Source: a virus
Virus record (IMG/VR): IMGVR_UViG_3300029593_000013
Strand: one strand, 5' to 3'
DNA: 44,487 nucleotides
Shown here: in pieces, positions 7,027 to 37,431 of the stretch
How the letters are laid out: the number at the start of each line of letters is the position of its first letter
How positions within the stretch are numbered: position 1 is the stretch's first letter
Position numbers and translations under genes: made by a program
Notes under the pieces: generated by a model
What the model was told of the DNA's origin: nothing
What the model saw: only the letters and a program-made list of their open reading frames with translations
Databases searched by the model: none

Positions 7027-7113
7027 CATATCAAAAACGCAAACGGGAGACAACCCATAAAAACGGAAAACATGGCGGAGGGAACCGCCTGACCAAACGC
7101 AGGAGGAGAAAAC

Positions 7114-8729: not shown

Positions 8730-8749
8730 ATTGAAAGGAGGCGGAAATC

Positions 8750-10336: not shown

Positions 10337-10374
10337 ATAACGCAAAACATTCCGCAAGGGCGGAATGAAAGCCG

Positions 10375-10410
10375 ATGGGCTGTTTCGTAAAGAAACGGCC
10401 CATTTTATTT
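10375..10410 (+). terminator. rho-independent terminator, preceded by a second hairpin at 10348-10367
   Basis: Stem atgggctgtttc / gaaacggcccat followed by tttattt. It shares the 15-mer AGCCGATGGGCTGTT with the terminator at 6009. Confidence 0.7.
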
Positions 10411-10462
10411 TACAAGAAAGGATTGATGACTTATCGCTATCTCTACTTATCGCGTTTTCCTC

Positions 10463-10867
10463 ATGAAGAAGAAGGACGTAGGAACCGATTATGAAAAGCT
10501 CATCGACATCAAGGAGTTTCCCGATCTTGGCGGTGATCCTGAGATGCTTGAGACAACCACCCTGTCCGACAAGATGCAGACCTACATCGCCGGTATCCAG
10601 TCCCTGGATGCGCTTTCCTTTACGGCGAACTACACCCTGGCGGACTACAAGAAGCTGCTGGCCTTGGAAGGCAAGACAACCAGTTTCGCTGTCTGGTTCG
10701 GCGGCACCGGCGAGGCGGACACCCTGACCCCCACCGGTTCTGATGGCAAGTTCAAGTTCGACGGGCAGCTGACCGCCTATCCCACCGGCGGCGGCGTGAA
10801 TGAGGTCGTTGACCTGAACATTTCCATTGCCCCGTCCACACCCATCACTTTGGATGCTACGGAGTAA
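10463..10867 (+). CDS. major tail (tube) protein
   Basis: 134 aa, assigned from its position before the chaperone pair. There is no obvious SD, and no alternative in-frame start exists upstream because a TGA lies at 10427. Confidence 0.7.
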   Translation: MKKKDVGTDYEKLIDIKEFPDLGGDPEMLETTTLSDKMQTYIAGIQSLDALSFTANYTLADYKKLLALEGKTTSFAVWFGGTGEADTLTPTGSDGKFKFDGQLTAYPTGGGVNEVVDLNISIAPSTPITLDATE

Positions 10868-11237: not shown

Positions 11238-11698
11238 GCAATCTGCTTCCCGAAAATGAAGGGGGTGGGGATTCCCCCACTCCCTTTTTCGCTTACACAC
11301 GGGCCTTTGAAAAGGCATTCCCTTATTACCTCGCAATCGGCATGACCTATGAACAGTTCTGGGAACAGGATGTTGATTTGGTCAAGTATTACCGGCAGGC
11401 GTGGAAATTGAAGCAGGAGGCCAAGAATCAGGACCTCTGGCTTATGGGCGCTTACGTTTACGAAGCGATTCTGAATGCGTCCCCGGTTCTCCACGATTTT
11501 GTGAAAAAGGGAACAAAACCGATTCCGTACCGGGATGCCCCGTACCCGATCTATAAAAAGCCGGAGGAAGAAAAGCCGAAAGCAATTGAGCGGGCAGAAC
11601 GGAAATCGGACAAGAAAGCACAGACAATGATGGAGATTTTTATGGTCTCCTTCAACAGGCGTTTTGAAAAGAAGGGCGGTGAAGAAAACGGCAGATAA
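10905..11698 (+). CDS. tail assembly chaperone frameshift product (gpGT-like fusion, -1 shift at 11213)
   Basis: ORF 11342..11698 lies in the -1 frame relative to 10905..11237. That frame is open upstream of its ATG and encodes sensible sequence (..FFAYTRAFEKAFPYYLAIGMTYEQFW..). Confidence 0.6.
11207..11213 (+). promoter_or_regulatory. -1 programmed ribosomal frameshift slippery heptamer G_GGA_AAC
   Basis: The zero-frame codons are gaG GGA AAC. The -1 frame is open from 11201 to 11698. Confidence 0.7.
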
Positions 11699-11705
11699 CG
11701 TAGAA

Positions 11706-14700
11706 ATGCAGGGCATTGAGTTCCAGATTATTAACGACAGTGACGAGGCAGCGAAGGGCCTTGAACGGCTTGAACGTGCGCTGTCGAATCTGAAAATCAA
11801 TGTAAAAGAAGGCGCTTCTTCTCTCTCCCAAATTGGAAACGGCATTTCAAAGCTGCGACAGTCCCTGAAAGACATCGACCCGACCGGGATTGGGGACAAA
11901 CTGAAATCTCTTTCCACTGCGGTAAATAACCTAAAAATCGACCGTTCTGCTACCATTTCGTCCTCTTTGCCGAAGAACATCACGGCGCTCAACAAGGCAG
12001 CCTTGGCAGCCGACCCAGCCAAAATCACCAGCATCGGCACGTCGCTGCAAACCATTGCCGACGTCGGTAATTCGGCGAAAATCTCCGCCGCTCTCCCGAA
12101 AAACCTTGAGGATTTGAGCGTTGCGCTTTCCTATATTGACCCTTCTGCGGCCTCCATTCTGCGAGACATCGGAGACGGACTGAAACCGCTTTCTGAGTTG
12201 GGGACAGCGCACCTGACCTCCTACATCAATCAGCTGGGGAAATTCCCGAAGCTGATCGAGGACCTGGGAAAGCTGGATATTGCCAAATTTTCAGACGAGA
12301 TGCGGGACCTTGCCGAGGCCATGAAGCCGTTCGCAGACGAAATGGCGAAGGTTTCTTCCGGATTTGCGGCGTTCCCCAGCCGAATCCAGAGGCTGATTAC
12401 CACCACGGAGCAGTACAACGGGACGGTTAAAAGGGCAACGAGCAACACAAACAGCTTTGGTTCCGCCCTGAAAAAGGTTAGCATTGCCGTCATCATAAAA
12501 AAGGTTGGATCGCTCATCGGCAAAGCAATGGAAAAGGCATCCCAATATCAGGAAGTCCTGAACCTGTTTACGGTCTCCATGGGTGAATATGCTAAAGAGG
12601 CGTATGAATACGCACAGACTGTTTCGGATGCAATGGGCATTGACCCTGCCGAATGGATGGAAAATCAGGGCGTTTTCAACACCATCATCACGGGCTTCGG
12701 CGTGGCCGGTGAAAAAGCGGCCTATATGTCCAAGAACCTGACCCAGCTGAGCTATGACCTAGCCTCGTTCTACAACATCGGGTTCACGGAGGCCATGCAG
12801 AAGGTGCAGTCTGGTATCGCTGGCGAACTTGAACCGATGCGTCGCCTTGGCTACGATCTGTCCGTTGCCCGGTTGGAGCAGGAACGCTTGAACCTCGGTA
12901 TCGAGAAAAGCGTGTCTGACATGACCCAGGCGGAGAAGTCTCAGCTGCGTTATTACGCCATGATGACCCAGGTAACACAGGTACAGGGAGACATGGCCCG
13001 GACGCTGAACCAGCCTGCAAATATGCTTCGGATTTTGAGGGCCGAACTGGAACAGACTGCCCGTGCATTTGGCAATATCTTTATCCCCATTATGACCAAC
13101 ACCCTTCCGTGGCTGATCGCCGTGGCACAGGGCATCCGGGAAATTGTCGTTGAGATTGCACGGCTTTTCAACATTGAAATTGCTGAAGTCGATTGGGACA
13201 GCAGTTTTTCCACGGCAGCCGGAGCAACTGGTAAAATCGAGGACAACATGAGCGGAGCCGCAGGTGCGGCGAAAGACCTGAAACGTTACCTGGCCGGTTT
13301 TGACGAACTGAACGTTCTCCCGGATAAAACATCCGGTGGGAGCGGGGGCGGCGTTTCTGCGGGCGGTGGTGGCCTTGACATCCCGCTTTTGGGCTATGAC
13401 TTTCTTGGTGAGGAAATCAACAAGAAGGTCAGTGCAATCAAAGAAAAACTGGAACCGGTTATTTCCTGGATTAAGGATAACTTAGAGGGAATCAGAAATA
13501 CCGTCGTTGCAATTGGAGCGGCGTTTTTGGCATGGAAACTGGCCACATCAATTGTCTCCGGCGTTGGGAAAATTGCTGGTTTTTTGAAATCTCTTTCCGC
13601 ATCCGCAAGCGTTTTGTCTGGGCTTTCCGGGATTACATTTATAGCTGACTTGGCAGAATTTATGCGCTATTTCAATGATTTCTCTGCAAATGGCGCAAGT
13701 TTTTCCAACATAACCGGAATGTTCAGCGAACTTGCAGGGATGGCTGGAAGCGTTGCTGCCATGTCCGGGAACTTGAAGGTTGGCGGTGCCTTAAAGTTCA
13801 TTCAGGGTATAGGTGAACTTGTTATTGCATCCGAAAGCATCAAGGCGGACGGTTGGAATGTTGAAAATACAACTACAGCTATCCGTGGCCTCGGGAATGT
13901 CGTGATTGCAGTTGGCCTGATTCAGGGCGATTTAACAACAGTCGGAACAGGAATGGCCATGGCTGGACTGTCAACTGTAATCAGAGAAGTTGCGGATAAC
14001 TGGGAAGCAATCAAAGAAGGAGATTGGAGCGGGGTAGACAAAGTTCAGCTTGCAATCGGGGCTGTTGAAATGATTGCCGGATTTGTAACTGTGCTGATAA
14101 AGCTCAACAACATCAAGTCCAGTATCCCTGATATTACAGCTACGCAGGAAACAATGAGTTCGGTTGGAGGTGCTGCTGAGGCACTGAACACTGGGACCAG
14201 TGCGCTTACATCAAAGTTGAAAGACCTTGTTGTGAATATTGGTCTTGGTGTGGCGATAATCGCAGAGGTCTCCGCAGCGGCGATCATCTTTATTGGGGCA
14301 ATCGCCATCCTCGGATGGGAACTTGATAAGGTTCGGGAGGCATGGCAGCCGGTCATTGACAACGCCGGAACTGTTGCAATTTCCGTCGGAATCGGAACAG
14401 GAATCCTTGTAGGCGTTGGTGCAATCTGCTATGCGCTTGGCACCGTCGGAAAAGGAATTGCCCTCAATGTCGGCATCGGCACTGCAATTCTGGTTGAACT
14501 TGGCGTTGCTGCGGCAGTTTTTATCGCTGAAATTTGGGGAATTGGAAAGGGCCTTGACGAAATCGGAAAGGCATGGGAACCAGTCCTTAACAACGGCGAG
14601 AACATCGCAATATCTATAGGCATCGGCACAGGACTTTTGGTTGGTATTGGCGTAGTTACGGCGGCACTCGGTGCGGCGACAGTCGGAACGGCTGGACTTA

Positions 14701-15740
14701 TCCCCATTGCGGTTGGTCTCGGAACTGCGTTGCTCGTTGAGTTGGCGGCTGCATTTGTCCTGTTCTGCGATAGCCTTGTCAAAGTTGCAGATGAATTAAC
14801 CGATGAACTTGCACCAGCATTCGATAGATTGAACCCAAAGATTCCGGGGCTGATTGATGATACCGATGACTTTATAAAGCTCATGTCGGAGTTGGCAGGC
14901 GATATTTCCAGCTACAATGACAGCATGGCGAAAATGTCGTGGGATTCCATTGTAGATAAATTCCGGTCGTTTTTCGTGAAAAGCCCGATTAAGACGTTTG
15001 CATCCAGCGTGAAAACCATCTCGGACGATACATCCAATTTGAACAAGAAGTTGCAGAAAGCGAACGACGAACTTACAAGCGCAGTTGGCTTGCTGGGCAA
15101 TTACACGGCATTGATGGATAAAATGCGAGAATTAAGTTCCGGGAGCCAGAACATTGATTTGCCGGACGGAATTTACACAAACCTCAAAGCGGCTGGCTCC
15201 AAATTGGTAACAGGCTGGGCAGACGGGATGAAGGACAAAAAGTCCTACTTGAAAAGCACACTTTCGGATATTGCTTCAAGCGTTTTTGACAGTGATACCG
15301 CATATTCCACCGGCTATTCCTTCGGTCAGTCCCTGGCGAACGGCATCTCTCAGGCCATCAAGAACGCTACCTACCCGTCCCTGAAGGGGACCATGAGCAC
15401 ATCCGGCGGAACTGCGAGAATGTCGTTCAGCGCATACGCTTCCGGCGGTTTCCCGGACCCCGGCCAGTTTTTCCTTGCCCGTGAAAACGGTGTCCCGGAA
15501 ATGGTCGGCTCCATCGGACGCAGAACAGCCGTTGCCAACAACGACCAGATCGTTGAAGCCGTCAAAGCCGGTGTCTACGAAGCTGTTGTTGCGGCTACCG
15601 GCGGCGGGAACAACCAGAACGGCGGTCAGGCGCAGGTGGTGTCCGCCAATGTCAACGGAAAGAACCTGTTTGAGTTTGTGGTGGATTATGCCCGTGGCGA
15701 AACCGTTCGTACCGGTGCGAACCCCCTGCTGGAATTTTGA
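11706..15740 (+). CDS. tape measure protein
   Basis: About 1,345 aa with a coiled-coil N-terminal half and a Gly/Ala/Ile-rich hydrophobic repeat core. The start could instead be the TTG at 11664. Confidence 0.9.
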   Translation: MQGIEFQIINDSDEAAKGLERLERALSNLKINVKEGASSLSQIGNGISKLRQSLKDIDPTGIGDKLKSLSTAVNNLKIDRSATISSSLPKNITALNKAALAADPAKITSIGTSLQTIADVGNSAKISAALPKNLEDLSVALSYIDPSAASILRDIGDGLKPLSELGTAHLTSYINQLGKFPKLIEDLGKLDIAKFSDEMRDLAEAMKPFADEMAKVSSGFAAFPSRIQRLITTTEQYNGTVKRATSNTNSFGSALKKVSIAVIIKKVGSLIGKAMEKASQYQEVLNLFTVSMGEYAKEAYEYAQTVSDAMGIDPAEWMENQGVFNTIITGFGVAGEKAAYMSKNLTQLSYDLASFYNIGFTEAMQKVQSGIAGELEPMRRLGYDLSVARLEQERLNLGIEKSVSDMTQAEKSQLRYYAMMTQVTQVQGDMARTLNQPANMLRILRAELEQTARAFGNIFIPIMTNTLPWLIAVAQGIREIVVEIARLFNIEIAEVDWDSSFSTAAGATGKIEDNMSGAAGAAKDLKRYLAGFDELNVLPDKTSGGSGGGVSAGGGGLDIPLLGYDFLGEEINKKVSAIKEKLEPVISWIKDNLEGIRNTVVAIGAAFLAWKLATSIVSGVGKIAGFLKSLSASASVLSGLSGITFIADLAEFMRYFNDFSANGASFSNITGMFSELAGMAGSVAAMSGNLKVGGALKFIQGIGELVIASESIKADGWNVENTTTAIRGLGNVVIAVGLIQGDLTTVGTGMAMAGLSTVIREVADNWEAIKEGDWSGVDKVQLAIGAVEMIAGFVTVLIKLNNIKSSIPDITATQETMSSVGGAAEALNTGTSALTSKLKDLVVNIGLGVAIIAEVSAAAIIFIGAIAILGWELDKVREAWQPVIDNAGTVAISVGIGTGILVGVGAICYALGTVGKGIALNVGIGTAILVELGVAAAVFIAEIWGIGKGLDEIGKAWEPVLNNGENIAISIGIGTGLLVGIGVVTAALGAATVGTAGLIPIAVGLGTALLVELAAAFVLFCDSLVKVADELTDELAPAFDRLNPKIPGLIDDTDDFIKLMSELAGDISSYNDSMAKMSWDSIVDKFRSFFVKSPIKTFASSVKTISDDTSNLNKKLQKANDELTSAVGLLGNYTALMDKMRELSSGSQNIDLPDGIYTNLKAAGSKLVTGWADGMKDKKSYLKSTLSDIASSVFDSDTAYSTGYSFGQSLANGISQAIKNATYPSLKGTMSTSGGTARMSFSAYASGGFPDPGQFFLARENGVPEMVGSIGRRTAVANNDQIVEAVKAGVYEAVVAATGGGNNQNGGQAQVVSANVNGKNLFEFVVDYARGETVRTGANPLLEF

Positions 15741-19436: not shown

Positions 19437-20366
19437 ATGGATAGAATCTTTGGCATCGACGTATCGGATTGGCAGGGTGACATCGATTGGGCGAAGGCCA
19501 AGGCCGCAGGCGTGAAATTTGCACTGCTGAAATGTGGCTACGGCATGGACCAGACCGATCAGGACGACGCTTGCTTTGTGCGGAACGCCAGCGAGTGTGA
19601 ACGCCTGGGCATCCCCTACGGCGTGTACCTTTACAGCTACGCCAACACCATGGAGAAGGCCAAGAGTGAGGCGGCGCACGTCCTCCGGATGCTCAAGGGG
19701 CGGAAGCCCCAGTACCCGGTGTATCTGGACCTGGAAGACCAGATCACCCTCTCCGCAAGCAAGGAACAGATTCTGGCCCAGGTGAAGGCCTGGTGCGAGA
19801 TCATCGAGGCAACCGGTTACAAGGCGGGCATCTACGCAAACCTGTACTGGTGGGACACCTATCTCACCGACCCCTGGTATGATACCAAGGAGCGCTGGGT
19901 GGCCCAGTATTACAGCAAGTGCGAGTATGCCAAGGACTACGGCATTTGGCAGTACACCAGCAGGGGAAGCGTGGCCGGTGTGAACGGGAACGTTGACTGC
20001 GACTGGTGCTACAAGGACTACCTGTCCACGGAGCCGGAAGTGCCGGATAGCCAGCCGGAGGCCCCCAGCGAGACCGTCTACGTCGTGAAATACGGCGACA
20101 CCCTAAGCGGTATTGCCAATGAGTACGGCACGACCTACCAGACCCTGGCGGCTTACAACGGCATTGCAAATCCCAACCTCATCCATGTGGGAGACAAAAT
20201 CCGCATCCCCGGAACCGCCGAAGCCCCTGCAAAGTCCATCGAGGACCTGGCCCGTGAGGTCATCCGGGGCGAGTGGGGCAATGGGGACGAGCGGGAAAAG
20301 CGTCTCACTGCTGCCGGATATGACTACGATGCCGTGCAGACCAGGGTAAACACCCTGCTTGGCTGA
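19437..20366 (+). CDS. endolysin: GH25 muramidase + LysM + CW_7 (Cpl-7-like) repeat
   Basis: N-terminus [33 protein letters not shown] (GH25). [29 protein letters not shown]...GDKIRIP (LysM). [35 protein letters not shown] (CW_7). Confidence 0.9.
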
Positions 20367-24529: not shown

Positions 24530-26203
24530 TTAAGGCAGGGAATATCTTTGTGTTTGCACCAGCAGGAACCCGATAAAAGTTATCGTGGGGTTCGGATGAG
24601 TTGCGTCTGGTGAACCAGAGGCCATCAAATCCGAACACATTTCTCCGCCGGAAGGGGGAGAACCGGCAGGGACCTTATAGGTTTTTTCCGGCAGTCCGGT
24701 GATATTGAATGCCGTTTTGATGGTAATTCCATCCGGGCCATCGTCCCAGACCGTAACGGAGTTTACAAGCAGGTCAAGCAGCATTGCCGTCTGATCTCCA
24801 ACGGCGGCGACCTTATCCCGGACCTTTTCCAGCCAGAATACCACCTTATCCTTTGTCAGGCGTACAGTGTTGCCTTCCTCTTTGACGAGTTCCGATTGCA
24901 AGGCTTTCGTCTGGGCTTCCAGCTCGGCAATGCGGGAGATCAGGTAGCTGGACGTTGCGCCGGATGCCTCGATTGCTGCGGTCAGGTTCCTGATCTTCGT
25001 TTCGTTTTCCTTGATTTCTTTTTGCAAGGCCGGGGCTTTTGACGTGGCTCTGTATGCCTCCTCAGACTGCTTTTCGGCCATGGTGGCGATATGGTCTATC
25101 ACTTCGTCCGTCAGCATGGCACGGGCCTGTTCTGCAACAATTCCTTCGATCCAGTCTTTTTGCAGATTCTTTTTCCGGCAGCCCTTACCACGCTTTTTAC
25201 TGTAGCAAGCGTAGTAATGATAAATCCGGCCCTGCTTGCCACGCCCGGACTCTCCGAACATATTGCTTCCACAGTGGCCACAAAAAATCTTTTGAGACAG
25301 CAGGTACGGGACCTTGGCCTTTGCTTTGGCCGGGGCTTCTGCTACCTGCTTTAATTTTTTTTGCACGGCATCAAACAGCTCCTTATCGATGATTGGCGGG
25401 ATAACATCCTCGGTGTAAACATCCCCGTACCGGCATATCCCGATATACTTTTTGTTTGCCATGATTCGGCTGAACGTGGACCCCCGGAACTCCATATTGT
25501 GCTGTGTCCGGTAGCCACGGGCGTTCAGGTCCCGCATGATGGCCGTGGCGGTCTCACCGGCGGCGTACCGCTCAAACATCTCCTTGACGATGGGCGCATA
25601 TACCGGGTCCAACTCAAGCCGCTTATTGACGGACTTATATCCCAATGGGATAACCCCGCCGGTGCTGGCCCCCTTTAGGGCCGTCTCCCGCATTCCACGC
25701 TTGACTTTTTGGGACAGTTCGGCGGAGTAGTATTCCGCCATTCCTTCCAGTAGGGATTCCAGGATAACGCCTTCTGGGTTTTTGCTGATGTTTTCCTTGG
25801 CGGATTCCACGGTGCAGCCGTTTTTCCGAAGGCGCATCCGGGCAATGGCGGCATCCTCCCGGCGGCGGGCGAAGCGATCCAGTTTCCAGACCAGGACGAT
25901 GGTCCATTCAGACCGTGCGCTGTCCGTCAGCATCTGCTGGAACGCCGGGCGCTTTTCCATGCTGGCGTGGGCCGAGATTGCCCGGTCCACATATACGGCG
26001 GCGCACCGGTAGCCCATCCTCTTGCAAAAATCAAGAAGGTCCCGAAGCTGGCCCTCAATGGATTGCTCCGTCTGCTTGTCGGATGAGTACCGCAAGTAAA
26101 AGCAGCAGACGGTCTCGCACCCGGAATCCAGGGCCTCCGGGCAGCCGTCGAATAGTGTTCTTTCCGCCGGTGTCAGGGCGGACAAATCAATCTGCATTTT
26201 CAT
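24530..26203 (-). CDS. int: large serine recombinase (phage integrase)
   Basis: 557 aa. Resolvase-type N-terminal domain (YLRYSSDKQ...SIEGQ...VWKLDRFARR), recombinase domain, and zinc ribbon CGHCGSNM...YYACYSKKRGKGC followed by a coiled coil. Confidence 0.9.
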   Translation of the reverse strand: MKMQIDLSALTPAERTLFDGCPEALDSGCETVCCFYLRYSSDKQTEQSIEGQLRDLLDFCKRMGYRCAAVYVDRAISAHASMEKRPAFQQMLTDSARSEWTIVLVWKLDRFARRREDAAIARMRLRKNGCTVESAKENISKNPEGVILESLLEGMAEYYSAELSQKVKRGMRETALKGASTGGVIPLGYKSVNKRLELDPVYAPIVKEMFERYAAGETATAIMRDLNARGYRTQHNMEFRGSTFSRIMANKKYIGICRYGDVYTEDVIPPIIDKELFDAVQKKLKQVAEAPAKAKAKVPYLLSQKIFCGHCGSNMFGESGRGKQGRIYHYYACYSKKRGKGCRKKNLQKDWIEGIVAEQARAMLTDEVIDHIATMAEKQSEEAYRATSKAPALQKEIKENETKIRNLTAAIEASGATSSYLISRIAELEAQTKALQSELVKEEGNTVRLTKDKVVFWLEKVRDKVAAVGDQTAMLLDLLVNSVTVWDDGPDGITIKTAFNITGLPEKTYKVPAGSPPSGGEMCSDLMASGSPDATHPNPTITFIGFLLVQTQRYSLP

Positions 26204-26777
26204 GTTCTTTCCTCCGAAGTCTCTTTTTAATTATTGTCTGTCCGATAAACAGGCAAATCCCGATGATTGCCAATGCCGCCAGATACACCCACATATTGAT
26301 ACCGTCGGCCCGGATAAGGCCAATCGTGGGATGCTGGGCATCCAGAACAACATAGGCCATCAGGGCCATGGCCAGGATGATGCACAGGCTTGTAAGGCCG
26401 TAAATGACCGGCTTCCGTTCCCGGATGCCTCCCTCCACCAGCTTGCTGCGCTCTTGCAATAAATCAATCTGTTTGCTGCGTTCTCGCAGCAGTTCCTCTT
26501 TGTGGGCGACCTCCGCTTGCAGAGAGCGTATTTTTTCGCCGGAGGAATCCGGCTCCTCCGGAAGGGAAATGCCCATCAGGGCATCCATGGAGAGGCCCAG
26601 AACCTCGCATATAGCGGCAAGATAAAACGCATTTGGGTTTCCGTTGCATCCGGAGGCCAGCAGTTTATTTACCGTAGACTGCGGCACATTGGCGGCATCG
26701 GCCAGCTGCTGATTGGTAAAACCGCTTATCCGCTTTGCGTCCCGGATTGTTTGCACAACATCATCATAGTCATTCAT
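26187..26777 (-). CDS. membrane-anchored XRE-family HTH protein (HTH + coiled coil + 2 C-terminal TM helices)
   Basis: The HTH is FTNQQLADAANVPQSTVNKLL and the TM segments are VIYGLTSLCIILAMALMAYVVL and MWVYLAALAIIGICLFIGQTII. The stop overlaps the integrase start by 17 nt. Confidence 0.75.
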   Translation of the reverse strand: MNDYDDVVQTIRDAKRISGFTNQQLADAANVPQSTVNKLLASGCNGNPNAFYLAAICEVLGLSMDALMGISLPEEPDSSGEKIRSLQAEVAHKEELLRERSKQIDLLQERSKLVEGGIRERKPVIYGLTSLCIILAMALMAYVVLDAQHPTIGLIRADGINMWVYLAALAIIGICLFIGQTIIKKRLRRKEHENAD

Positions 26778-26926
26778 ACAAATTCCTTTCCTTCGACAAA
26801 ATGATTGAATCAATTCGCTATGAGAAACAGTTTTCACTTTTTCGCAGTCGATTTTACCCTCCCGCTGCGGTATGCTGTCCATGCAGCCGGGTAGCGAGGG
26901 AGCGTAGAGGCTTCATCTGGCGGCAG

Positions 26927-26956: not shown

Positions 26957-27046
26957 AATTATAATGTCCGCTTTATTGGACTGAACATATGATAGCATAC
27001 AGACAGTCGAACAGGCGTTCGATAAAGGACGTGACGAAAAACTACC

Positions 27047-27655: not shown

Positions 27656-28033
27656 TTACTCTTTGGACAATTCCTGAGCGATTTTTTTAATGTATTCTTC
27701 CAGCTTGGGGTATGCTTCGTCCGGCAGCATGGCGAAGGCTTTCACCAGTCGGGCCTTTGCATCGTCGCTGGCCATGATGTCGCCAAAGATGGATTTCAGT
27801 TCTTCCTCCCGGTCCAGGTTCAGGCGCATTTCCCCTTCGCCGGTGCGGAGCCAGGCCTCGCTCACGCCGAAGACACGGCAAATATCCGAGATCGTGCGGT
27901 CGCTGGGTATGCTCTCACCAGATACCATACGGGAGACGTGGGGCTGAGAGACATTTATTTTTTCTGCGAAAGCCGTCTTTGTCATGCCGGATGCCTTTAC
28001 AACCGCTGCGATACGCTCATTGATGGTGCTCAT
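27656..28033 (-). CDS. cI-like XRE-family repressor (125 aa)
   Basis: MSTINERIAAVVKASGMTKTAFAEKINVSQPHVSRMVSG..., AAGGAGGTG RBS. It is divergent from the early promoter. Confidence 0.85.
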   Translation of the reverse strand: MSTINERIAAVVKASGMTKTAFAEKINVSQPHVSRMVSGESIPSDRTISDICRVFGVSEAWLRTGEGEMRLNLDREEELKSIFGDIMASDDAKARLVKAFAMLPDEAYPKLEEYIKKIAQELSKE

Positions 28034-28047
28034 CTGCATCACCTCCT

Positions 28048-28075
28048 TACATTCTGTATTATAGCACACCTCGAA
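28048..28075 (-). promoter_or_regulatory. repressor promoter (TTGACT-16 nt-TATAAT)
   Basis: Minus strand reads TTGACTttttttcgaggtgtgcTATAAT. Confidence 0.65.
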
Positions 28076-28115
28076 AAAAAGTCAAGAAAAATTATGCCTC
28101 ACGCATAAATAGGGC

Positions 28116-28157
28116 TTGACATTATGTTCGGGGCATGATAGAATATGTCCAGAACAT
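28116..28157 (+). promoter_or_regulatory. early rightward promoter (TTGACA-17 nt-TAGAAT) with overlapping operator-like repeats
   Basis: ttgacattatgttcggggcatgatagaat. ATGTTC (28124-29) lies in the spacer and the near-palindrome ATGTCC-A-GAACAT (28145-57) lies at the predicted start site. Confidence 0.7.
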
Positions 28158-28491: not shown

Positions 28492-29070
28492 GGCACGGAT
28501 GATGGGAGCGTTCGCTCCCATCCAGAGGCCCCGGCCGGACCGCCGGTGGCAGCAAAAGCAAGGCCTCGGCCCCAAGTTCGGGCCGAAGCCGAAGGTCGAG
28601 AATAACAAAGCCAAAACATAAAGGGCCGGTCCCCGGCCCAAACGTAATGCAGCCTAGGCCGGTTCCAAGCCCGGAGAAATGCAGAGGACGTTGACTGCGG
28701 CGAAAAGAAAGAATCACCTGTGGTTTGGTCACAGATGATTCTCCCCCGGTTTTGTTTGCCGGAATGCGCTGCGCCGAAAGACCGGAGTTTCTGGTCCGGA
28801 AGCTACCCCTGGGCAGCCCACTTCTCCCGGCAGCAAACCAAACTTGCATCCTTGGCGCACCGTTTCACTTCGGCAGTTCCGGTTCTGCCCTTCGCCCTAA
28901 CGCATCACGCCACCTTTGTGGTCCGGTACTGGCGGAAACAAAAGTTGGTTGGATGCTATCATCCCCCATCCTCTTATTTACCCCAATGGGCAACCGGAAC
29001 TATACCACACTTTTCCGCCGCAGTCAACGCAAAAAAAACAAAAAACGGGGCTTTCCCCGAAAATTTATGG
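28492..29070 (+). ncRNA. candidate large structured non-coding RNA or leader (about 580 nt, GC-rich, hairpin-dense)
   Basis: No ORF has an RBS or a plausible translation on either strand. Many local helices are present, for example gatgggagc-gttc-gctcccatc, gggccgg-tcc-ccggccc, ggcctcggccc/gggccgaagcc and gaatcacctgtg/cacagatgattc. Confidence 0.4.
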
Positions 29071-29080
29071 AGGTGTAAAA

Positions 29081-29251
29081 ATGCCCGAAGAAGTCAAGCA
29101 AGTCGCAAAGAGCGCAGCCGAGGCCATTGGCCGAATCCCTGCCGAAAAGGTGGAAATGGCTACCCGGTTCGCCGAGACCTTCGCCGCCGGTCTTGCTACC
29201 GGCATGGCCCTGAACGAGGTCGGAAAGAAGGAGGAGGCGAACAAGGAATGA
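29081..29251 (+). CDS. small hypothetical protein (56 aa)
   Basis: GGAGGTG RBS. Product begins MPEEVKQVAKSAAEAIGRIPAEKVEMATRFAETFAAG. Confidence 0.65.
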   Translation: MPEEVKQVAKSAAEAIGRIPAEKVEMATRFAETFAAGLATGMALNEVGKKEEANKE

Positions 29252-29385
29252 CCCCAGAAGCGGAACTGACCGGAGCCATATATGCGCTCCGGAAGGCGAT
29301 TGAGGCGTTCTACAAGGACCCGCAGAATGAAGCGGATTTTCGCCGCTGGTATCAGGAAAAGTACGGAAAACCATACGAAGAATAA
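29248..29385 (+). CDS. small hypothetical protein (45 aa)
   Basis: ATGA overlap with the upstream gene. Product: MTPEAELTGAIYALRKAIEAFYKDPQNEADFRRWYQEKYGKPYEE. Confidence 0.6.
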   Translation: MTPEAELTGAIYALRKAIEAFYKDPQNEADFRRWYQEKYGKPYEE

Positions 29386-29407
29386 AGAAAAAGGAAGGAA
29401 ATGCAAA

Positions 29408-29863
29408 ATGACAAATCTTGAAAGACGTGTTCTGGCCCTGGAAAAGAAAATGGCCACGCTGACCGCCGGGACGAACGACCCCTACACGCTCCCCGAACCC
29501 AGAGAAGCTGACGAAATCATCAAGGAGATTCTGTTCCGGCTGGGCGTTCCGGCCCATCTGGACGGCTACCGGAACATGGTGGAGGCCATCAAAATCGTGA
29601 TGGATGCCCCAAACATCCCGGTACGCACACTCTATGCTGAAGTAGCGGCAAAAAGCGGGAAATCCTGCTGCATCGACCGGTCCATGCGCCATGCTATCGA
29701 GGTGGCCTGGTCCAGAGGCAATGTGGAGGAGCAGGAGCGCTACTTTGGCAATACGGTGGACCCCAAGCGGGGAATGCCCACGGTAGGCCACTTGGTCTGG
29801 ACCCTGGCCGAGGAAGTCAAGCACATCATGGAGGAGGAACAGCGGAATGCAGTACATCACTGA
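29408..29863 (+). CDS. standalone Spo0A C-terminal (DNA-binding effector) domain protein
   Basis: LGVPAHLDGYRNMVEAIKIVMD...MRHAIEVAWSRGN...FGNTVDPKRGMPTVGHLV matches the Spo0A_C signature (..RAIRHAIEVAWSRG..). There is no receiver domain. Confidence 0.8.
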   Translation: MTNLERRVLALEKKMATLTAGTNDPYTLPEPREADEIIKEILFRLGVPAHLDGYRNMVEAIKIVMDAPNIPVRTLYAEVAAKSGKSCCIDRSMRHAIEVAWSRGNVEEQERYFGNTVDPKRGMPTVGHLVWTLAEEVKHIMEEEQRNAVHH

Positions 29864-30155
29864 CCCAGACATGGAGATGATTTACGAGATCAACGCCCGG
29901 CGCAAGGCCGAGAAGGCCGAGGCCCTGCGGAAGTGTCAGGCCCGTGTGGCCCACGAGAAGGCAAAGCGGGCGTTCTGGCGGACCGTCCGCCGTGCCGCCC
30001 TGGAATGCGGAAGCTGCCTGTGCCTGGCCGGGATGATGGCCGTTTACACGGCACGGGACATGGTTTCCCCGGAGGTCTCCGGTCCTATCGCTCTGGCCTG
30101 TCTCATCGTCGGTGTGTGGCGTGGTGCCATGTACTGGCAGCAGCTTAACAAGTGA
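29847..30155 (+). CDS. hypothetical membrane protein (102 aa)
   Basis: Two hydrophobic segments in the C-terminal half. It overlaps the upstream gene end. Confidence 0.6.
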   Translation: MQYITDPDMEMIYEINARRKAEKAEALRKCQARVAHEKAKRAFWRTVRRAALECGSCLCLAGMMAVYTARDMVSPEVSGPIALACLIVGVWRGAMYWQQLNK

Positions 30156-30372: not shown

Positions 30373-30663
30373 ATGGCTAATTATATCACAACAAACGCCG
30401 AAAAGCAAGAGCGTCTTGCCTACACGGCGAGATTTTTAAGGGAAAGGAACCGCATAGCGATGGAAGATAATTTTGCCCTGTGGCAGCAGCATGAACGGGA
30501 CATGGAGGAATCCCTGACCCGTCGCCCCCAGTGTGAGTGCTGCGGGCAGTACATCCAGGATGACTACACCTGGGAGATTGACGGAGTGCTGTTCTGCCCG
30601 AAGTGTGCGGCGGACAAGTTCCGCCGGGAAACGGAAGACCTGATGGGAGGCTTTGAGGGATGA
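30373..30663 (+). CDS. zinc-ribbon protein (96 aa)
   Basis: CECCGQ...CPKC. Confidence 0.65.
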   Translation: MANYITTNAEKQERLAYTARFLRERNRIAMEDNFALWQQHERDMEESLTRRPQCECCGQYIQDDYTWEIDGVLFCPKCAADKFRRETEDLMGGFEG

Positions 30664-31592
30664 TTCACAAGGTCCATGCCGCCAATGAAGAAGAGTGGCG
30701 GCAGATACGGGCAAAGTCCATCGGCGGTTCCGATGCCGCCGCCATCCTGGGGCTGAACCCTTACAAATCCGCATACGCCCTTTGGATGGAAAAGACCGGC
30801 AAGGTCATTCCGGAGGACGTTTCCGGGAAGGAGGCCGTCCGGCTGGGCAACGACCTGGAAGATTATGTGGCCAAGCGGTTTATGGAGGCCACCGGTAAGA
30901 AGGTCCGGCGGGAGAACAACACCATCTTCCGGGACGATCTGCCTTTTGCCCATGCCAATTACGACCGCCTGGTCGTTGGCGAGAAGGCCGGTCTGGAAAT
31001 CAAGACCACAAACGCCCTGCACCTGAGCAAGTTTAAGAACGGAGAGTTTCCGGCGAACTACTATTGCCAAGCGGTCCACTATCTACTAGTGTCCGGCCTG
31101 GAACGCTGGTACCTGGCAGTCCTGGTCCTCGGTGTTGATTTTAAGGTCTTTACCATCGAACGGGACGAGGACGAGATCGCCGCCCTGGAAGCCGCAGAAC
31201 GTGACTTTTGGGAGATGGTGGAGACGGACACCCCACCGGAATTAGATGGCTCTGTGTCCACGGAGGAAGCCCTGAACGCAGAGTTTCCGCAGAGCGACCC
31301 GGACGAGGAGGTTGACCTGACCAGCAACGCCGCAGACCTGGCGCTGCTGGAAGAATGCGACCGGCAGATCAAGGACCTGGAGGAACGCAAGACCGCTGCC
31401 AAGAACCGCATCATGCAGACCATGGGAACGGCAGAGCGGGGCTATTACGGTGGCTACACCGTCAGCTGGAAGTCTCAGAGCCGGGCGACCTTCGACCGGA
31501 AGAAATGGGAGAAAGACCACGGAGAAATCCCACAGAACTACTTCAAAACTTCGGAAAGCAGAACTTTCCGCTTTAGAAAGGACACAGATTAA
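30660..31592 (+). CDS. YqaJ-type (lambda Exo-like) recombination exonuclease
   Basis: EEWRQIRAKSIGGSDAAAILGLNPYKSAYALWMEKTG is typical of the YqaJ N-terminus. It is syntenic with recT. Confidence 0.85.
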   Translation: MIHKVHAANEEEWRQIRAKSIGGSDAAAILGLNPYKSAYALWMEKTGKVIPEDVSGKEAVRLGNDLEDYVAKRFMEATGKKVRRENNTIFRDDLPFAHANYDRLVVGEKAGLEIKTTNALHLSKFKNGEFPANYYCQAVHYLLVSGLERWYLAVLVLGVDFKVFTIERDEDEIAALEAAERDFWEMVETDTPPELDGSVSTEEALNAEFPQSDPDEEVDLTSNAADLALLEECDRQIKDLEERKTAAKNRIMQTMGTAERGYYGGYTVSWKSQSRATFDRKKWEKDHGEIPQNYFKTSESRTFRFRKDTD

Positions 31593-32514: not shown

Positions 32515-33327
32515 ATGGAAAACACAATCCAGAATGCAGCCGCCGCAAAGGCGGTAGCAAAGAAGAAAACGCCTCAGAGCATCCAGGATTACATCCAGGT
32601 CATGGGTCCGGCTATCAAGGCCGCTCTGCCCAGCGTGATGACCCCAGAGCGGTTTACCCGCATTACCATGAGCGCCCTGAGCGCCAACCCCAGGCTGAAA
32701 GAGTGCACCCCGCAGAGTTTTCTTGGGGCGATGATGACAGCCGCTCAGCTTGGCCTGGAACCCAATACTCCCCTTGGCCAGGCCTACCTCATCCCCTTCA
32801 AAAACCACGGGCGGATGGAGTGTCAGTTCCAGCTGGGCTATAAGGGCCTCATCGATCTGGCTTACCGGTCCGGCGAGGTCTCCATCATCCAGGCCCACAC
32901 GGTCTATGATAACGATGAGTTCGTCTATGAGCTGGGCCTTGACCCCAAACTGCGCCACGTCCCCGCTAAGACCAACCGGGGCAATCCTGTTGCTTACTAT
33001 GCCATGTTCAAGACCAAGGACGGCGGCTACGGCTTCCAGGTGATGAGCATTGAGGACGTTCGCACCCACGCCCAGAAGTTTTCCAAAAGTTTCGGAAACG
33101 GCCCGTGGCAGACAAACTTCGATGAAATGGCAAAGAAAACAGTTCTGAAAAAGGTCCTGAAATATGCGCCGCTGAAATCGGATTTCGTCCGGGGCGTTAT
33201 GCAGGATGAGACCACCAAGGTGGAACTCTCCGATGATATGACCAGCATCCCCGACACCACGGATTACATTGACGTAGACAGCGAGACCGGCGAAGTCATC
33301 CCCCAGGAGGTAGCCGACAATGCTTAA
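32515..33327 (+). CDS. recT: RecT-family single-strand annealing protein
   Basis: ...MTPERFTRITMSALSANPRLKECTPQSFLGAMMTAAQLGLEP...GYKGLIDLAYRSG... Confidence 0.9.
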   Translation: MENTIQNAAAAKAVAKKKTPQSIQDYIQVMGPAIKAALPSVMTPERFTRITMSALSANPRLKECTPQSFLGAMMTAAQLGLEPNTPLGQAYLIPFKNHGRMECQFQLGYKGLIDLAYRSGEVSIIQAHTVYDNDEFVYELGLDPKLRHVPAKTNRGNPVAYYAMFKTKDGGYGFQVMSIEDVRTHAQKFSKSFGNGPWQTNFDEMAKKTVLKKVLKYAPLKSDFVRGVMQDETTKVELSDDMTSIPDTTDYIDVDSETGEVIPQEVADNA

Positions 33328-33724
33328 CGAGATCGTTGTCATGGGTCGCATGGTGCGCGACCCCGAACTTCGCCGAACCGGGAATGGGACGGCAGTGGCC
33401 AGCTTTACGCTGGCCTGTGAACGGGACGTGGCCTCCAAGGATGCCGAGAAGAAGGAAGTCGATTTTATTGACTGCGTGGCTTGGCGGGGCACCGGTGAAA
33501 GCGCAGCAAAGTATTTCACCAAGGGCCGTCTGGCCGCTGTTACCGGTCGCCTGCAATTCCGGGAATGGACCGACAAGGACGGCAAGAAACGGCGCAACGC
33601 TGAGATTTTGGTGGACCACATCTACTTCTGCGGCGACAAAAAAGATTCCGCTGAGAGCCGCCCTGAGCCTTCCGAGAGCGGATTTACGCCGATGGATGCC
33701 CCTGACGAAGGGCTTCCGTTTTGA
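33320..33724 (+). CDS. ssb: single-stranded DNA-binding protein
   Basis: OB-fold N-terminus MLNEIVVMGRMVRDPELRRTGNGTAVASFTLA and acidic tail DEGLPF. Confidence 0.9.
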   Translation: MLNEIVVMGRMVRDPELRRTGNGTAVASFTLACERDVASKDAEKKEVDFIDCVAWRGTGESAAKYFTKGRLAAVTGRLQFREWTDKDGKKRRNAEILVDHIYFCGDKKDSAESRPEPSESGFTPMDAPDEGLPF

Positions 33725-34104
33725 TGGTGGCGGCCATGCGGAGCAAATACGGGAGCCGCAAGACGATCGTTGACGGCATCTCATTTGACAGCAAAAAGGA
33801 GGCATCCCGTTACCGGGAACTCCTCCTGCTGGAAAGGGCCGGAAAAATCGGGAACCTCCGGCGGCAAGTGAAATATGTCCTCATCCCGGCACAGTATGAA
33901 AACCCCGACAGCCCGACAAAATCGGGCCGGGGTAAGTGCCTGGAACGAGAGTGCAGCTACGTTGCGGACTTTGTTTACGATGTCCCGATGGTGCCGGAGC
34001 CGATTGAGATCGTCGAGGACACCAAGGGCTTCCGAACGGAAGCGTACAAAATAAAGCGCAAAATGATGCTTTATATGCACGGAATCAGAATCAACGAAGT
34101 ATAG
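33724..34104 (+). CDS. DUF1064-family protein (putative Holliday-junction resolvase / nuclease)
   Basis: KYGSRKTIVDGISFDSKKEASRYRELLLLERAGKIGNLRRQVKY matches the DUF1064 pattern. Confidence 0.8.
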   Translation: MVAAMRSKYGSRKTIVDGISFDSKKEASRYRELLLLERAGKIGNLRRQVKYVLIPAQYENPDSPTKSGRGKCLERECSYVADFVYDVPMVPEPIEIVEDTKGFRTEAYKIKRKMMLYMHGIRINEV

Positions 34105-34109
34105 GGGGC

Positions 34110-34883
34110 ATGAGGATGCCGAGAGAAACAGTTAAAATTTTCCGGTCGTACCGGGATGCTGCCGCCGCTGTGGCGGCCAGTGACCCGGCAGACCCAGGGC
34201 GAGGAATTGAAAGTGCATATCGCTTTTTAATGGCAATTTTGGACTACGGCCTCGATGGAACGGAACCTGAACTTTCTGGGGCGGCCGCTGCTATGTGGAT
34301 GCTTACAAAGCCCAACCTTGATGCCTCAATCAAAAAGGCAGATGCAGGAGCAAAAGGCGGGAGTACACCTACCGCAGATAAGCAAACCGCAAGCAAAACG
34401 GAAGCAAACGCAAAGCAGAACGAAAGCAAACCAGAAGCAAACGGCAAGCAAACCGCAAGCAAAACGGAAGCGGAAGAAGGAAGTAGGAAGAAGGAAGTAG
34501 GAAGTAGGATAGAGGAAGAGAGTATCCCCCCTGTAAGCCCCCCCTTGGGGGCGAGATTCGACGAGTTTTGGGCCGCATATCCCCGGAAGGTTGGGAAGCA
34601 AGCCGCCTGGAAGGCGTGGAGTAAGCTCAAGCCAAGTGCCGAGCTGACGAAAGCGATTCTGGCTGCGGTGGAGTACCAGCGCAATTGCCCACAGTGGCAG
34701 AAGGACGGTGGCCAGTACATCCCGAACCCTGCCACCTGGCTGAACCAGGGTCGATGGGAGGACAGACTGCCAACGCCTGTGGATCAGCCGCAGCGGAAGA
34801 CCGGAAGGCCCACGAAGGCAGACGAGCTGAACGATTTTTACGCCATGGCAGCAAAGTGGGCAGGAGGGGGGGAGACCCCGTGA
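34110..34883 (+). CDS. putative replisome organiser / replication initiator
   Basis: C-terminal motif FDEFWAAYPRKVGKQAAWKAWSKL. A central low-complexity repeat linker is present, and the gene is followed by a loader-like gene. Confidence 0.65.
   Translation: MRMPRETVKIFRSYRDAAAAVAASDPADPGRGIESAYRFLMAILDYGLDGTEPELSGAAAAMWMLTKPNLDASIKKADAGAKGGSTPTADKQTASKTEANAKQNESKPEANGKQTASKTEAEEGSRKKEVGSRIEEESIPPVSPPLGARFDEFWAAYPRKVGKQAAWKAWSKLKPSAELTKAILAAVEYQRNCPQWQKDGGQYIPNPATWLNQGRWEDRLPTPVDQPQRKTGRPTKADELNDFYAMAAKWAGGGETP
34380..34509 (+). repeat. direct repeats inside the organiser gene: a 26-nt exact repeat x2, then the tandem 14-mer AGAAGGAAGTAGGA x2 plus a partial copy
   Basis: aagcaaaccgcaagcaaaacggaagc occurs at 34380-34405 and 34446-34471. 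The 14-mers lie at 34475-88 and 34489-502. Confidence 0.85.
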
Positions 34884-35501: not shown

Positions 35502-35849
35502 ATGCGAAAACAATGCAGAGTCTGCCACGTTGTGACAGACCTGGACGAGACAGGCCGCTGCGCTTTTTGCACCCTGTGCTATGAGGCTGTTGAGGCCGGG
35601 ACAAGCTACGGCAAGTACGTTGCACAGAGAGACCGTATGCAGCCCGTTCAGCATCAGGAGCCTCAGCCGGAAAAATGGCCGGAGGCCATTACTGGGAACG
35701 CCACCTGCCCGGTCTGCGGTCAGCCGTTTTACCGGATAGGACACAGACGGGTCTATTGCTCTACGGCCTGCTGCAAAGCAGCGGCAAGAAAACGGTCAAG
35801 AGAGTTTTCCCGGAAAAAATACTGGGCGGGGAAGGCGGCAAAGGGATGA
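35502..35849 (+). CDS. double zinc-ribbon protein
   Basis: CRVCH..CAFC and CPVCG...YCSTAC. ATG at 35502 lies 9 nt after AGGAG (an alternative ATG is at 35496). Confidence 0.65.
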   Translation: MRKQCRVCHVVTDLDETGRCAFCTLCYEAVEAGTSYGKYVAQRDRMQPVQHQEPQPEKWPEAITGNATCPVCGQPFYRIGHRRVYCSTACCKAAARKRSREFSRKKYWAGKAAKG

Positions 35850-36745
35850 ATGATTTAGAACAAATGGCCATCGAACGCCTGAAAGCCGCCTCTGATATGT
35901 CGCTCATGGCATATGATAAGCCTTTGGTTATCTGCATTTCCGGCGGCAAAGATTCCAGCGTCATCACCGAACTTGCAGTGCGTTCCGGAATCCCTTGCGA
36001 GTTTCAGCACAACCACACCACAGCCGATGCCCCGGAAACGGTGCGATTCGTGCGAAGCGAGTTCAAACGGCTAGAGGAAAACGGCTACAAATGCACCGTA
36101 AATATGCCGGTTTACAAGGGGAAGCGTGTGTCCATGTGGACACTGATACCTCAGAAGTTCATGCCGCCAACACGGCTGGTTCGGTATTGCTGTTCTGTTC
36201 TGAAAGAAACAGGTGGGGCAGGGCGGTTTATTTGCACCGGCGTTAGATGGGCAGAATCTGTATCCAGAAAAAACAATCGTGGAATCTATGAAAAATTGGG
36301 TGCAACCAGGGATAAAAGTATCATTCTCGCAAATGACAATGACGAAAAGCGGCTGCTTTTTGAAAACTGCCGCCTGAAAGCAAAGCGGGTTGTGAATCCT
36401 ATCATTGACTGGGCAGACGGGGATGTTTACGGTTTTTTGGAAGATGCGAAAGTCCCCATGAATCCGCTCTATGCCGAGGGACAATGCCGTGTGGGCTGTA
36501 TCGGTTGCCCCATGGCTGGAAAAAAGGAGCGTGAAGCGGAGTTCTCCCGGTGGCCGAAGTACAAGCAGCTCTATCTGAACGCCTTTGAGCGGATGCTGGA
36601 GGAACGCAAGCGGCGGAACAAGGAATCGAGCTGGGAAACCGCAGATTGGACTACCGCAGAAGAAGTGTTCCGCTGGTGGATGGAGTACGATGTGCTGCCG
36701 GGACAGACCAGCATGGAGGATTATTTGGAGATGATAGACGAATGA
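35846..36745 (+). CDS. PAPS-reductase-family (PP-loop ATP pyrophosphatase) protein
   Basis: PP-loop ICISGGKDSSV. C-terminal Cys cluster CRVGCIGCP. Confidence 0.85.
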   Translation: MNDLEQMAIERLKAASDMSLMAYDKPLVICISGGKDSSVITELAVRSGIPCEFQHNHTTADAPETVRFVRSEFKRLEENGYKCTVNMPVYKGKRVSMWTLIPQKFMPPTRLVRYCCSVLKETGGAGRFICTGVRWAESVSRKNNRGIYEKLGATRDKSIILANDNDEKRLLFENCRLKAKRVVNPIIDWADGDVYGFLEDAKVPMNPLYAEGQCRVGCIGCPMAGKKEREAEFSRWPKYKQLYLNAFERMLEERKRRNKESSWETADWTTAEEVFRWWMEYDVLPGQTSMEDYLEMIDE

Positions 36746-37431
36746 AAGTTTTAATAGCCTGCGAAGAATCGCAGACCGTGTGCAAGGCGTTCCGAGAGCG
36801 TGGGCACGAAGCCTACTCATGCGACATACAGGAGCCATCCGGCGGACATCCGGAATTGCACATCCTGGGCGATGCCATAAAGGCCATTGAGGGGGGGCAG
36901 ATAACCACGATGGACGGACAGAAGCATGATGTTGGCCGGTGGGACTTGCTTATCGCTCATCCACCGTGTACATACCTGAGTAACGTAGCTACACGCAGCT
37001 TTTCCCTCCGCTGCACACCGGCGGAAAAAGTTGTGAAAAGATGGGAAGATAGAGCCAAAGGTGCCATTTTCTTTATGCGATTTTTAACTGCGAACGCAGA
37101 AAGAATCGCAATCGAAAACCCGATCGGTTTTATGAACACGGCGTACAGAAAGCCGGACCAGACGATACACCCCTATATGTTCGCCTCCGGGGCTGACGAT
37201 AGAGAAAACTATGTGACAAAAGCAACGTGTCTGTGGCTTAAAAACTTGCCGAAACTTGGGAAAAACAGTCTCCCAAAGCCAAATAATGCGGAGTTATTCG
37301 GGGTTCGACCGAATGGCAGAGCAAGAATTTGGGAGGATTCCTTTTCCAGGTCCGGGAAAGTACGAAGCAAAACATTTCCAGGCATCGCTGCTGCAATGGC
37401 AGAACAATGGGGAGGGCTTGACAATGAATAA
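36742..37431 (+). CDS. short DNA cytosine-C5 methyltransferase-like protein
   Basis: ATGA overlap with the upstream gene. Motif IV-like AHPPCTYLS and motif VI-like IAIENP. Confidence 0.65.
   Translation: MKVLIACEESQTVCKAFRERGHEAYSCDIQEPSGGHPELHILGDAIKAIEGGQITTMDGQKHDVGRWDLLIAHPPCTYLSNVATRSFSLRCTPAEKVVKRWEDRAKGAIFFMRFLTANAERIAIENPIGFMNTAYRKPDQTIHPYMFASGADDRENYVTKATCLWLKNLPKLGKNSLPKPNNAELFGVRPNGRARIWEDSFSRSGKVRSKTFPGIAAAMAEQWGGLDNE

Follow-up and report, generated by a model that had tools for sequence, protein, structure and literature searches.

A receiver-less Spo0A-like effector-domain protein encoded in the putative early operon of a complete temperate phage genome

The virus record IMGVR_UViG_3300029593_000013 of IMG/VR, a stretch of 44,487 nucleotides (nt) referred to here as the window, contains on its + strand an open reading frame (ORF) whose product resembles the DNA-binding part of the cellular regulator Spo0A, and the locus raises the question of what such a protein does in a phage: whether it acts as Spo0A does, opposes it, or has been turned to another use. 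The ORF extends from 29408 to 29863 (+), with the start codon ATG at 29408 and the stop codon TGA at 29861-29863, and encodes a product of 151 amino acids (aa). A Shine-Dalgarno sequence, AAGGAAGGA, can be read at 29391..29399 (+), 8-9 nt upstream of the ATG, and gene callers choose the same start in related genomes. A longer reading of 193 aa from the ATG at 29282 was rejected, since it lacks a ribosome-binding site, overlaps an ORF of 45 aa and is not the one used by gene callers in the relatives.

The 151-aa product shows a match to the Pfam family Spo0A_C (PF08769) between residues 38 and 136 (29519..29815, +), covering profile positions 1-103 of 104 (E 8.5e-24, 84 bits, with a gathering score of 25 bits), and the Pfam search shows no match to the receiver domain Response_reg (PF00072). 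The profile of full Spo0A, TIGR02875, which has 262 positions, is aligned by residues 22-137 only at its positions 136-255, and the product stays below the equivalog cut-off (81.8 bits vs 200). The two Spo0A C-domains of the PDB, 1fc3 and 1lq1, are matched by sequence with E values of ~3e-17. An AlphaFold2 model built on 88 homologues, with a mean predicted local distance difference test score (pLDDT) of 86.4, begins with a helix (residues 3-20), followed by a linker of low confidence (21-33) and by six helices (34-149), which include the helix-turn-helix of the effector domain. In a Foldseek comparison of this model with the PDB the only significant matches are 1LQ1, a Spo0A-DNA complex, and 1FC3, with template-modelling scores (TM-scores, target-normalised) of 0.78-0.84, the value for 1LQ1 being 0.84, and root-mean-square deviations of 1.8-2.9 Å. 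The product is confirmed, far beyond chance, as a standalone Spo0A effector domain without a receiver. An initial annotation, made by eye from the letters of the window, had proposed both the effector domain and the missing receiver; both proposals hold in the profile, structure and fold comparisons, the peptides it quoted (LGVPAHLDGY, MRHAIEVAWSRGN and FGNTVDPKRGMPT) are all found in the product, and the profile search it suggested gives a significant match.

Effector-only phage proteins of this type have been described. Human-gut phages carry truncated spo0A homologues limited to the effector domain, reported as 29 virome sequences on the basis of alignment only (mBio 2023, Schwartz, Lennon et al., PMC10294663), and a constitutive or dominant-negative mimic of Spo0A was already proposed there for the class. 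In view of that report, the window gene is a new and well-characterised member of a published gut-phage class and not a new kind of gene: it is likewise phage-encoded and effector-only, and the same hypothesis of signal-independent sporulation control applies. It differs from the published set in its placement in a complete temperate genome, within an operon of early type, and the N-terminal helix, the diverged recognition helix and KPTNSEF motif, and the host-clade-like alphaE segment described below go unmentioned in the available part of that report. Compared with cellular Spo0A (TIGR02875; B. subtilis P06534; 1LQ1 and 1FC3), the window protein has the effector fold in common and is 32-44% identical to the C-domain, but it has neither receiver nor phospho-acceptor, its alphaB-alphaC loop is three residues shorter, and the residues S210, R211, E213, K245, N248, S249, E250 and F251 of cellular Spo0A are all replaced.

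The gene is stably kept. Five related genomes carry the Spo0A_C gene at 91-100% amino-acid identity, and an IMG/VR contig of 44,997 bp encodes a protein 100% identical to it. Pairwise ratios of nonsynonymous to synonymous substitution rates (dN/dS) of the gene against its relatives are 0.1-0.3, which denotes purifying selection, and a block of small genes of 56, 45, 151, 102, 51 and 96 aa, in which the 151-aa gene lies, is syntenic in every close relative examined. Some 240 sequences are members of the relatives' protein clusters, about as many as in the cluster of the exonuclease encoded nearby. The selection, the synteny and the cluster size together indicate that the Spo0A_C gene is a stable part of an abundant phage lineage. 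Its best match outside this lineage shows 44% identity, so the gene is no recent capture.

The window starts and ends with the same 99 bases, which leaves 44,388 unique ones, and this terminal repeat indicates a circular genome assembled end to end. Searches against PHROG families assign to it a large terminase (2685-4331, +), a portal (4425-5867, +), a major head protein (7710-8729, +), a tape measure protein (11664-15740, +), an endolysin (19437-20366, +), a large serine integrase (24530-26203, -; PHROG 95, E 1e-117), which marks a temperate phage, and a cI-like XRE-family repressor (27656..28069, -; PHROG repressor and regulator families, E down to 1e-18). By these assignments the phage is a complete, temperate genome of siphovirus type, and the terminal repeat, structural and lytic genes, integrase and repressor agree with the earlier claim that the Spo0A-like gene is phage-encoded. 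Two divergent promoters are located between the cI-like repressor and the rightward genes: a rightward early promoter at 28116..28144 (+), recognised by consensus match as TTGACA-17 nt-TAGAAT with an extended -10 TG, and the repressor promoter at 28085-28058 (-). The Spo0A_C gene is on the same strand as the rightward promoter and ~1.3 kb downstream of it, no + strand terminator is predicted between that promoter and 29408, and the promoter probably drives the operon that contains the gene. Directly upstream are two ORFs of 56 and 45 aa (29081..29385, +), syntenic in all close relatives, the first without a PHROG match; downstream, an ORF of 102 aa (29847..30155, +) shares its first 17 nt with the end of the Spo0A_C gene, in which its ribosome-binding site, GGAGGAGGA, is also located; this arrangement suggests translational coupling of the two. 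The 102-aa ORF shows no PHROG match, and its product is probably a membrane protein, judged by eye from two hydrophobic segments. From its position the gene would belong to an early lytic operon, in line with the early expression that the initial annotation had assumed.

At the N-terminus, residues 3-20, NLERRVLALEKKMATLTA (29414..29467, +), form a predicted amphipathic helix (AlphaFold2 pLDDT ~70-78) in which the hydrophobic residues L4, V8, L11, M15 and L18 show a 4-3-4-3 spacing of about two heptads, so that the coiled-coil-like N-terminus noticed earlier has a counterpart in the model. It is followed by a flexible linker, residues 21-33 (29468..29506, +), which has no secondary structure in the model and whose residues 21-30 have a mean pLDDT of 57. 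The motif xLE[RK]K[VI]xAL is located at the N-terminus (residues 4-6) of eight of the 71 non-redundant standalone homologues, proteins otherwise 35-40% identical; shuffling gives an expectation of 0.005 occurrences, a contrast that is inflated since the motif was defined post hoc. Judged by this motif, the helix is a conserved trait of a subfamily of standalone homologues. In alignment it is collinear with NLEERIKDL, the last receiver helix of some full-length Spo0As, which suggests an origin by 5' truncation; the likeness to receiver helix alpha5 is not significant (z = 1.4 in a shuffle test with 122 full-length Spo0As), and a remnant of alpha5 is kept as a hypothesis. In full-length Spo0A, DNA binding requires dimerisation driven by phosphorylation, and the isolated DNA-binding domain binds genuine targets without phosphorylation (PMC3485338). 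Given the requirement of the full-length protein, the most economical role of the N-terminal helix would be constitutive dimerisation.

An exhaustive homologue search gives 4,197 representative clusters at E <= 0.001 and 916 at E <= 1e-10. The set includes full-length regulators (~255 aa), numerous standalone proteins 110-215 aa long and some in which the Spo0A_C domain is repeated in tandem, two to four times. The last are P0332 (394 aa), P0333 (454 aa), P0334 (428 aa), P0335 (231 aa) and P0336 (314 aa), one of the tandem proteins beginning with a receiver-like N-terminus; such an architecture would put several 0A-box readers on one chain. The window protein was compared with the consensus of 83 homologues outside its own lineage, with B. 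subtilis numbering derived from the alignment. Its recognition helix, the equivalent of alphaD, comprises residues 89-103, IDRSMRHAIEVAWSR (29672..29716, +). The signature of this helix in the family, SRVERAIRHAIEVAW, is 93-100% conserved in the 83 homologues; in the window protein the last eight residues, R-H-A-I-E-V-A-W, and the equivalent of R214 match it, and six of the first seven residues, C-C-I-D-R-S-M, are changed. The window protein also keeps GVPAH, the equivalents of R214, R217 and H218-W224, RHAIEVAWSRGN in full, FG.TV and the P-T of KPT. Reportedly (Zhao et al. 2002), E213, R214 and R217 are the residues that read the bases of the 0A box, and their conservation among homologues fits such a role. 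P0346 and P0350 (both 153 aa), which of the proteins with this architecture are nearest to the window protein, vary more in the helix, which reads NAERNIRYAIEITW and DVSRNVKYAIELAW, respectively.

The alphaE segment, GNVEEQERYFGNTV, residues 104-117 (29717..29758, +), is the equivalent of residues 227-240 of B. subtilis Spo0A, the region that activates sigma-A. It is identical at 11-12 of 14 positions to one clade of cellular full-length Spo0As (P0352, P0479-P0485 and P0005), in which the named relatives are metagenome-assembled genomes (MAGs) labelled Lachnospiraceae, whereas typical Spo0As show 5-7 of 14. Across the alphaE region a stretch of 53 nt has 85% nucleotide identity to spo0A of the MAG GCA_054270615.1, and in tetranucleotide similarity to the phage the contig of that MAG comes second of ~70 clostridial contigs compared. 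These comparisons suggest a surface for polymerase contact that has been kept host-specific and a surface for DNA contact that has drifted or been retuned. On the same contig (L169), a serine recombinase of 391 aa and an HTH_3/Peptidase_S24 repressor are located at 7884-9762, directly upstream of spo0A (10001-10786), and may be the remnant of a mobile element.

The phage genome was also searched for sites of such a protein. The strict heptamer TGTCGAA is not enriched in it (4 copies vs 4.75 expected); with one mismatch allowed, there are 129 copies vs 117 +/- 10. The relaxed pattern TGNCGAA shows 53 copies, vs 28.6 +/- 5.8 in dinucleotide shuffles and 32.6 +/- 4.8 in codon shuffles; 37 of the 53 are in sense coding frames, eight are intergenic with no enrichment between genes, and among 4096 equivalent patterns it holds rank 34, with 112 of them at a z of at least 3, under a null that is clearly too narrow. 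The excess was judged to be coding bias, and self-regulation through 0A boxes, for which it was considered, was set aside. A search for repeated intergenic k-mers as operators found only promoter (GGGCTTGACA) and hairpin repeats. These searches provide no evidence of phage regulation by the protein through recognisable sites. In a separate place, 27005-27038, where an intergenic region separates a small + strand ORF from the gene of an XRE-type regulator (26187-26882, -), three 0A-box-like heptamers, AGTCGAA, TTCGATA and TGACGAA, lie within 34 bp. AGTCGAA and TTCGATA together make up the inverted repeat TCGAA-N6-TTCGA, and the cluster may serve as the operator of a repressor and not as a site for Spo0A.

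As to the host, the terminase relatives found in cultured phages all have Gram-positive hosts, the closest being Clostridium innocuum phage Maintenon (45% identity), and the same search shows thousands of metagenomic relatives. The endolysin of a near-identical relative contains GH25, LysM and CW_7 domains, and the nearest phage homologues of the Spo0A_C protein, with 30-40% identity, are on 12 contigs named 'Bacteriophage sp.' from human faecal viromes. Terminase kinship, endolysin domains and faecal homologues together make a Firmicutes (Bacillota) gut host likely, and the Firmicutes host named in the initial annotation is thereby supported indirectly. Tetranucleotide composition and alphaE point weakly to the clade of MAGs labelled Lachnospiraceae. 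In a scan of 185,579 species-representative genomes, none of the best 80 loci listed is a prophage with a Spo0A_C gene; all of them are cellular spo0A genes, with 33-39% identity. The contigs looked up were all free genomes, of ~44-47 kb.

Relatives of the Spo0A_C protein were found at 76 loci of IMG/VR. Sixteen clear standalone genes among them adjoin integrases, XRE repressors, antirepressors, Rha and early replication ATPases, a position like that of the window gene. Two groups of IMG/VR contigs (L121-L129 and L136-L147), compared with L096-L100, contain just the 3' end of a cellular spo0A, 286 or 201 nt long, with 89-94% nucleotide identity to the intact gene of L098. In L137 the fragment (5989-6201) directly adjoins an ORF of 344 aa (6311-7345) in which a tyrosine-recombinase-like motif is seen by eye, and in L098 an equally long ORF (6470-7504) comes after the intact spo0A (5602-6360). 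Such an arrangement is typical of phages that use spo0A as their integration site and supply it with a new 3' end; it implies that among virome matches to 'phage spo0A' some are relics of integration sites, and that spo0A is a prophage attachment site. These fragments linked to attP start in mid-domain, adjoin the integrase and show ~90% nucleotide identity to the host gene; the window gene, in contrast, contains the full domain, its own start and N-terminal helix, is 3.2 kb from an integrase of serine type, and has no nucleotide likeness to a cellular spo0A beyond the 53-nt stretch of 85% identity.

The reading preferred here, at a probability of roughly 0.6, is that the gene encodes a Spo0A-like transcription factor that does not need the phosphorelay, is produced early in the lytic cycle, and acts on host sites of Spo0A type to override the dormancy decision. 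In cellular Spo0A the receiver, as long as it is unphosphorylated, keeps the effector domain inactive; since the window protein has no inhibitory receiver, it should bind DNA as soon as it is made. In the lysogen the early rightward operon would be off; infection or induction would turn it on, and the Spo0A-like protein would then be made. The N-terminal amphipathic helix of the protein would probably substitute for dimerisation by the phosphorylated receiver. Since alphaE is kept in the form of one cellular lineage, the protein likely still contacts host RNA polymerase and would be a transcription factor rather than a blocker of sites; the conserved alphaE thus favours an activity that still engages the polymerase. 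Host decisions controlled by Spo0A would then be overridden in lytic development: entry into sporulation, stationary-phase genes and possibly the initiation of replication. What the analysis shows of the protein is its identity, fold, domain architecture, genomic position and purifying selection; its constitutive activity, dimerisation, sigma-A contact and targets are inferred, and its effect on sporulation could be either promotion or block.

Several known systems can be compared with it. Removal of the receiver, in the C-terminal fragment of B. subtilis Spo0A and in Sad67, gives DNA binding and activity independent of phosphorylation (Grimsley 1994 and Ireton 1993, via PMC10294663 and PMC3485338), and the window protein may be regarded as a natural equivalent as regards receiver removal, although those are laboratory truncations with an unchanged DNA surface, and in the window protein this surface has diverged and a separate N-terminal helix is present. 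Phage homologues of sigF and sigG, which are also phage copies of sporulation regulators proposed to rewire host dormancy, lowered the spore yield of B. subtilis on ectopic expression (Schwartz et al. 2022, via PMC10294663); they belong to another family, act at another step and have experimental support, whereas the window protein is known from sequence and model. In phi29 and SPO1 the genomes contain 0A boxes through which host Spo0A arrests lytic development (PMC12991052), so that those phages carry the sites and use the Spo0A of the host, while in the window phage it is the protein that is encoded, and consensus sites are not in excess.

Several points weigh against the preferred reading. 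The window protein deviates in 24 columns whose conservation in the family is 90% or higher; among them, the front half of the recognition helix shows S210C, loss of R211, V212I, E213D, A215S and I216M; and the motif KPTNSEFIA at the start of the last helix, seven positions of which are 95-100% conserved in other homologues, is MPTVGHLVW. With the helix front and this motif diverged, canonical recognition of the 0A box is uncertain, and faithful mimicry of 0A-box binding is not assured. Heptad patterns in the N-terminal extensions of standalone homologues are weak (a perfect pattern in 15% vs 8% in shuffles), and dimerisation through a helix of two heptads is speculative. A spore-forming host with a Spo0A regulon is at most plausible. 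In the literature no experimental paper on any phage Spo0A homologue was found, and a 2025 review gives phage spo0A as 'Not validated'.

Other explanations are conceivable. The protein could be a dominant-negative competitor, which sits on 0A boxes, or joins host Spo0A in complexes that are inactive, and activates no transcription; entry into sporulation would thereby be blocked to let lytic growth run to its end. The DNA-binding core and the key arginines are kept, early lytic expression would suit a phage that stops its host from escaping into dormancy, the lower spore yields with phage sigF and sigG homologues set an example, and the N-terminal helix, resembling alpha5 of the receiver, could in principle contact host Spo0A. 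This explanation is nevertheless rather unlikely, as alphaE, of all variable segments the one best conserved with respect to the cellular clade, would not be expected to persist if activation had been abandoned, and the likeness to alpha5 is statistically unsupported. The divergence of the helix front and of KPTNSEF, nearly invariant in cellular Spo0A, speaks for an exapted phage regulator, a re-specified Spo0A fold that controls phage genes (an early-to-middle switch, or lysis-lysogeny) or new host promoters instead of the Spo0A regulon. The further variation of the recognition helix in P0346 and P0350, the location of the gene in a regulatory, early module and the old lineage implied by a nearest non-self homologue of 44% identity would fit such a regulator. 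However, R214 and R217 are kept and no candidate operator was found: strict TGTCGAA stays at its expected number, the TGNCGAA excess lies almost wholly in sense coding frames at rank 34 of 4096, and the intergenic repeats are promoter and hairpin elements only, so that this explanation is unlikely.

A further reading, also rather doubtful, is a re-engineered Spo0A instead of a mimic, in which the sigma-A helix of the host lineage is kept and the DNA-reading residues are changed, so that polymerase would be recruited to new phage or host promoters, and/or in which the helix, as a relic of alpha5, pairs with host Spo0A and hijacks or poisons it. If it were true, the protein would define a subfamily of its own among the regulators of mobile elements, recognisable by the xLE[RK]K[VI]xAL helix at the N-terminus and serving some function other than the control of sporulation. 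The virome fragments described above raise, finally, the thought of a non-functional remnant, either a decaying captured host spo0A or a 3' fragment linked to attP: other viral contigs bear 201- or 286-nt fragments beside a tyrosine integrase, and the 53-nt stretch of 85% identity to cellular spo0A persists in the gene. This is very improbable, since the gene has its own ribosome-binding site, start codon and conserved N-terminal helix, covers the whole domain (1-103 of 104 profile positions), is 3.2 kb from an integrase that is of serine and not of tyrosine type, and is under purifying selection, with synteny in all relatives.

About half of gut Firmicutes pass between people as spores. A phage protein able to turn the Spo0A programme on or off independently of host signals would let phages influence how gut spore-formers persist and are transmitted. 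The complete and abundant temperate genome, with a defined gene and promoter context and clear sequence differences from the host protein, makes this phage a practical choice for testing the function of the class for the first time, and the differences from cellular Spo0A caution against assuming that a 'phage spo0A' copies the activity of the host protein.

The remaining genes of the early and replication region are located downstream on the + strand: a RecE/YqaJ exonuclease (30660-31592), RecT (32515-33327), a single-stranded DNA-binding protein, SSB (33320-33724), a Holliday-junction resolvase (33724-34104), a replication initiator (34110-34883) and a protein similar to 3'-phosphoadenosine 5'-phosphosulfate (PAPS) reductase (35675-36745; PHROG 424, E 5e-39). 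The PAPS-reductase family (yitB) is among the sporulation genes reported as enriched in phages of spore-formers (PMC10294663). The window also contains two tRNA genes, and an identical copy of its serine integrase carries the domains Resolvase, Recombinase and Zn_ribbon_recom.

The rightward early operon also shows, antisense at 28708-28914 (-), a full-length match to the FuFi-1 RNA (Rfam RF02986; 76.8 bits vs a gathering score of 59.6, E 1e-14), an orphan structured RNA without assigned function (PMC5737381). It lies in a non-coding gap of 460 bp (28622-29080), ~500 nt upstream of the Spo0A_C gene, and is flanked by a - strand promoter-like site (29027-28999) and - strand terminators (28639-28623). 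A linkage of FuFi-1 to Spo0A_C genes was considered and rejected, the RNA being absent from 14 other viral loci encoding Spo0A_C. Four copies of GGGCTTGACA are contained in the window, at 170-179 and 277-286 (-) and at 28112-28121 and 37414-37423 (+), and three of them are followed by a consensus -10: TAGAAT for the copy at 28112, TATAAT at 170 and TATAGT at 277. This distribution suggests a shared element of strong promoters of sigma-A type, two of which would drive a leftward cluster across the genome ends.

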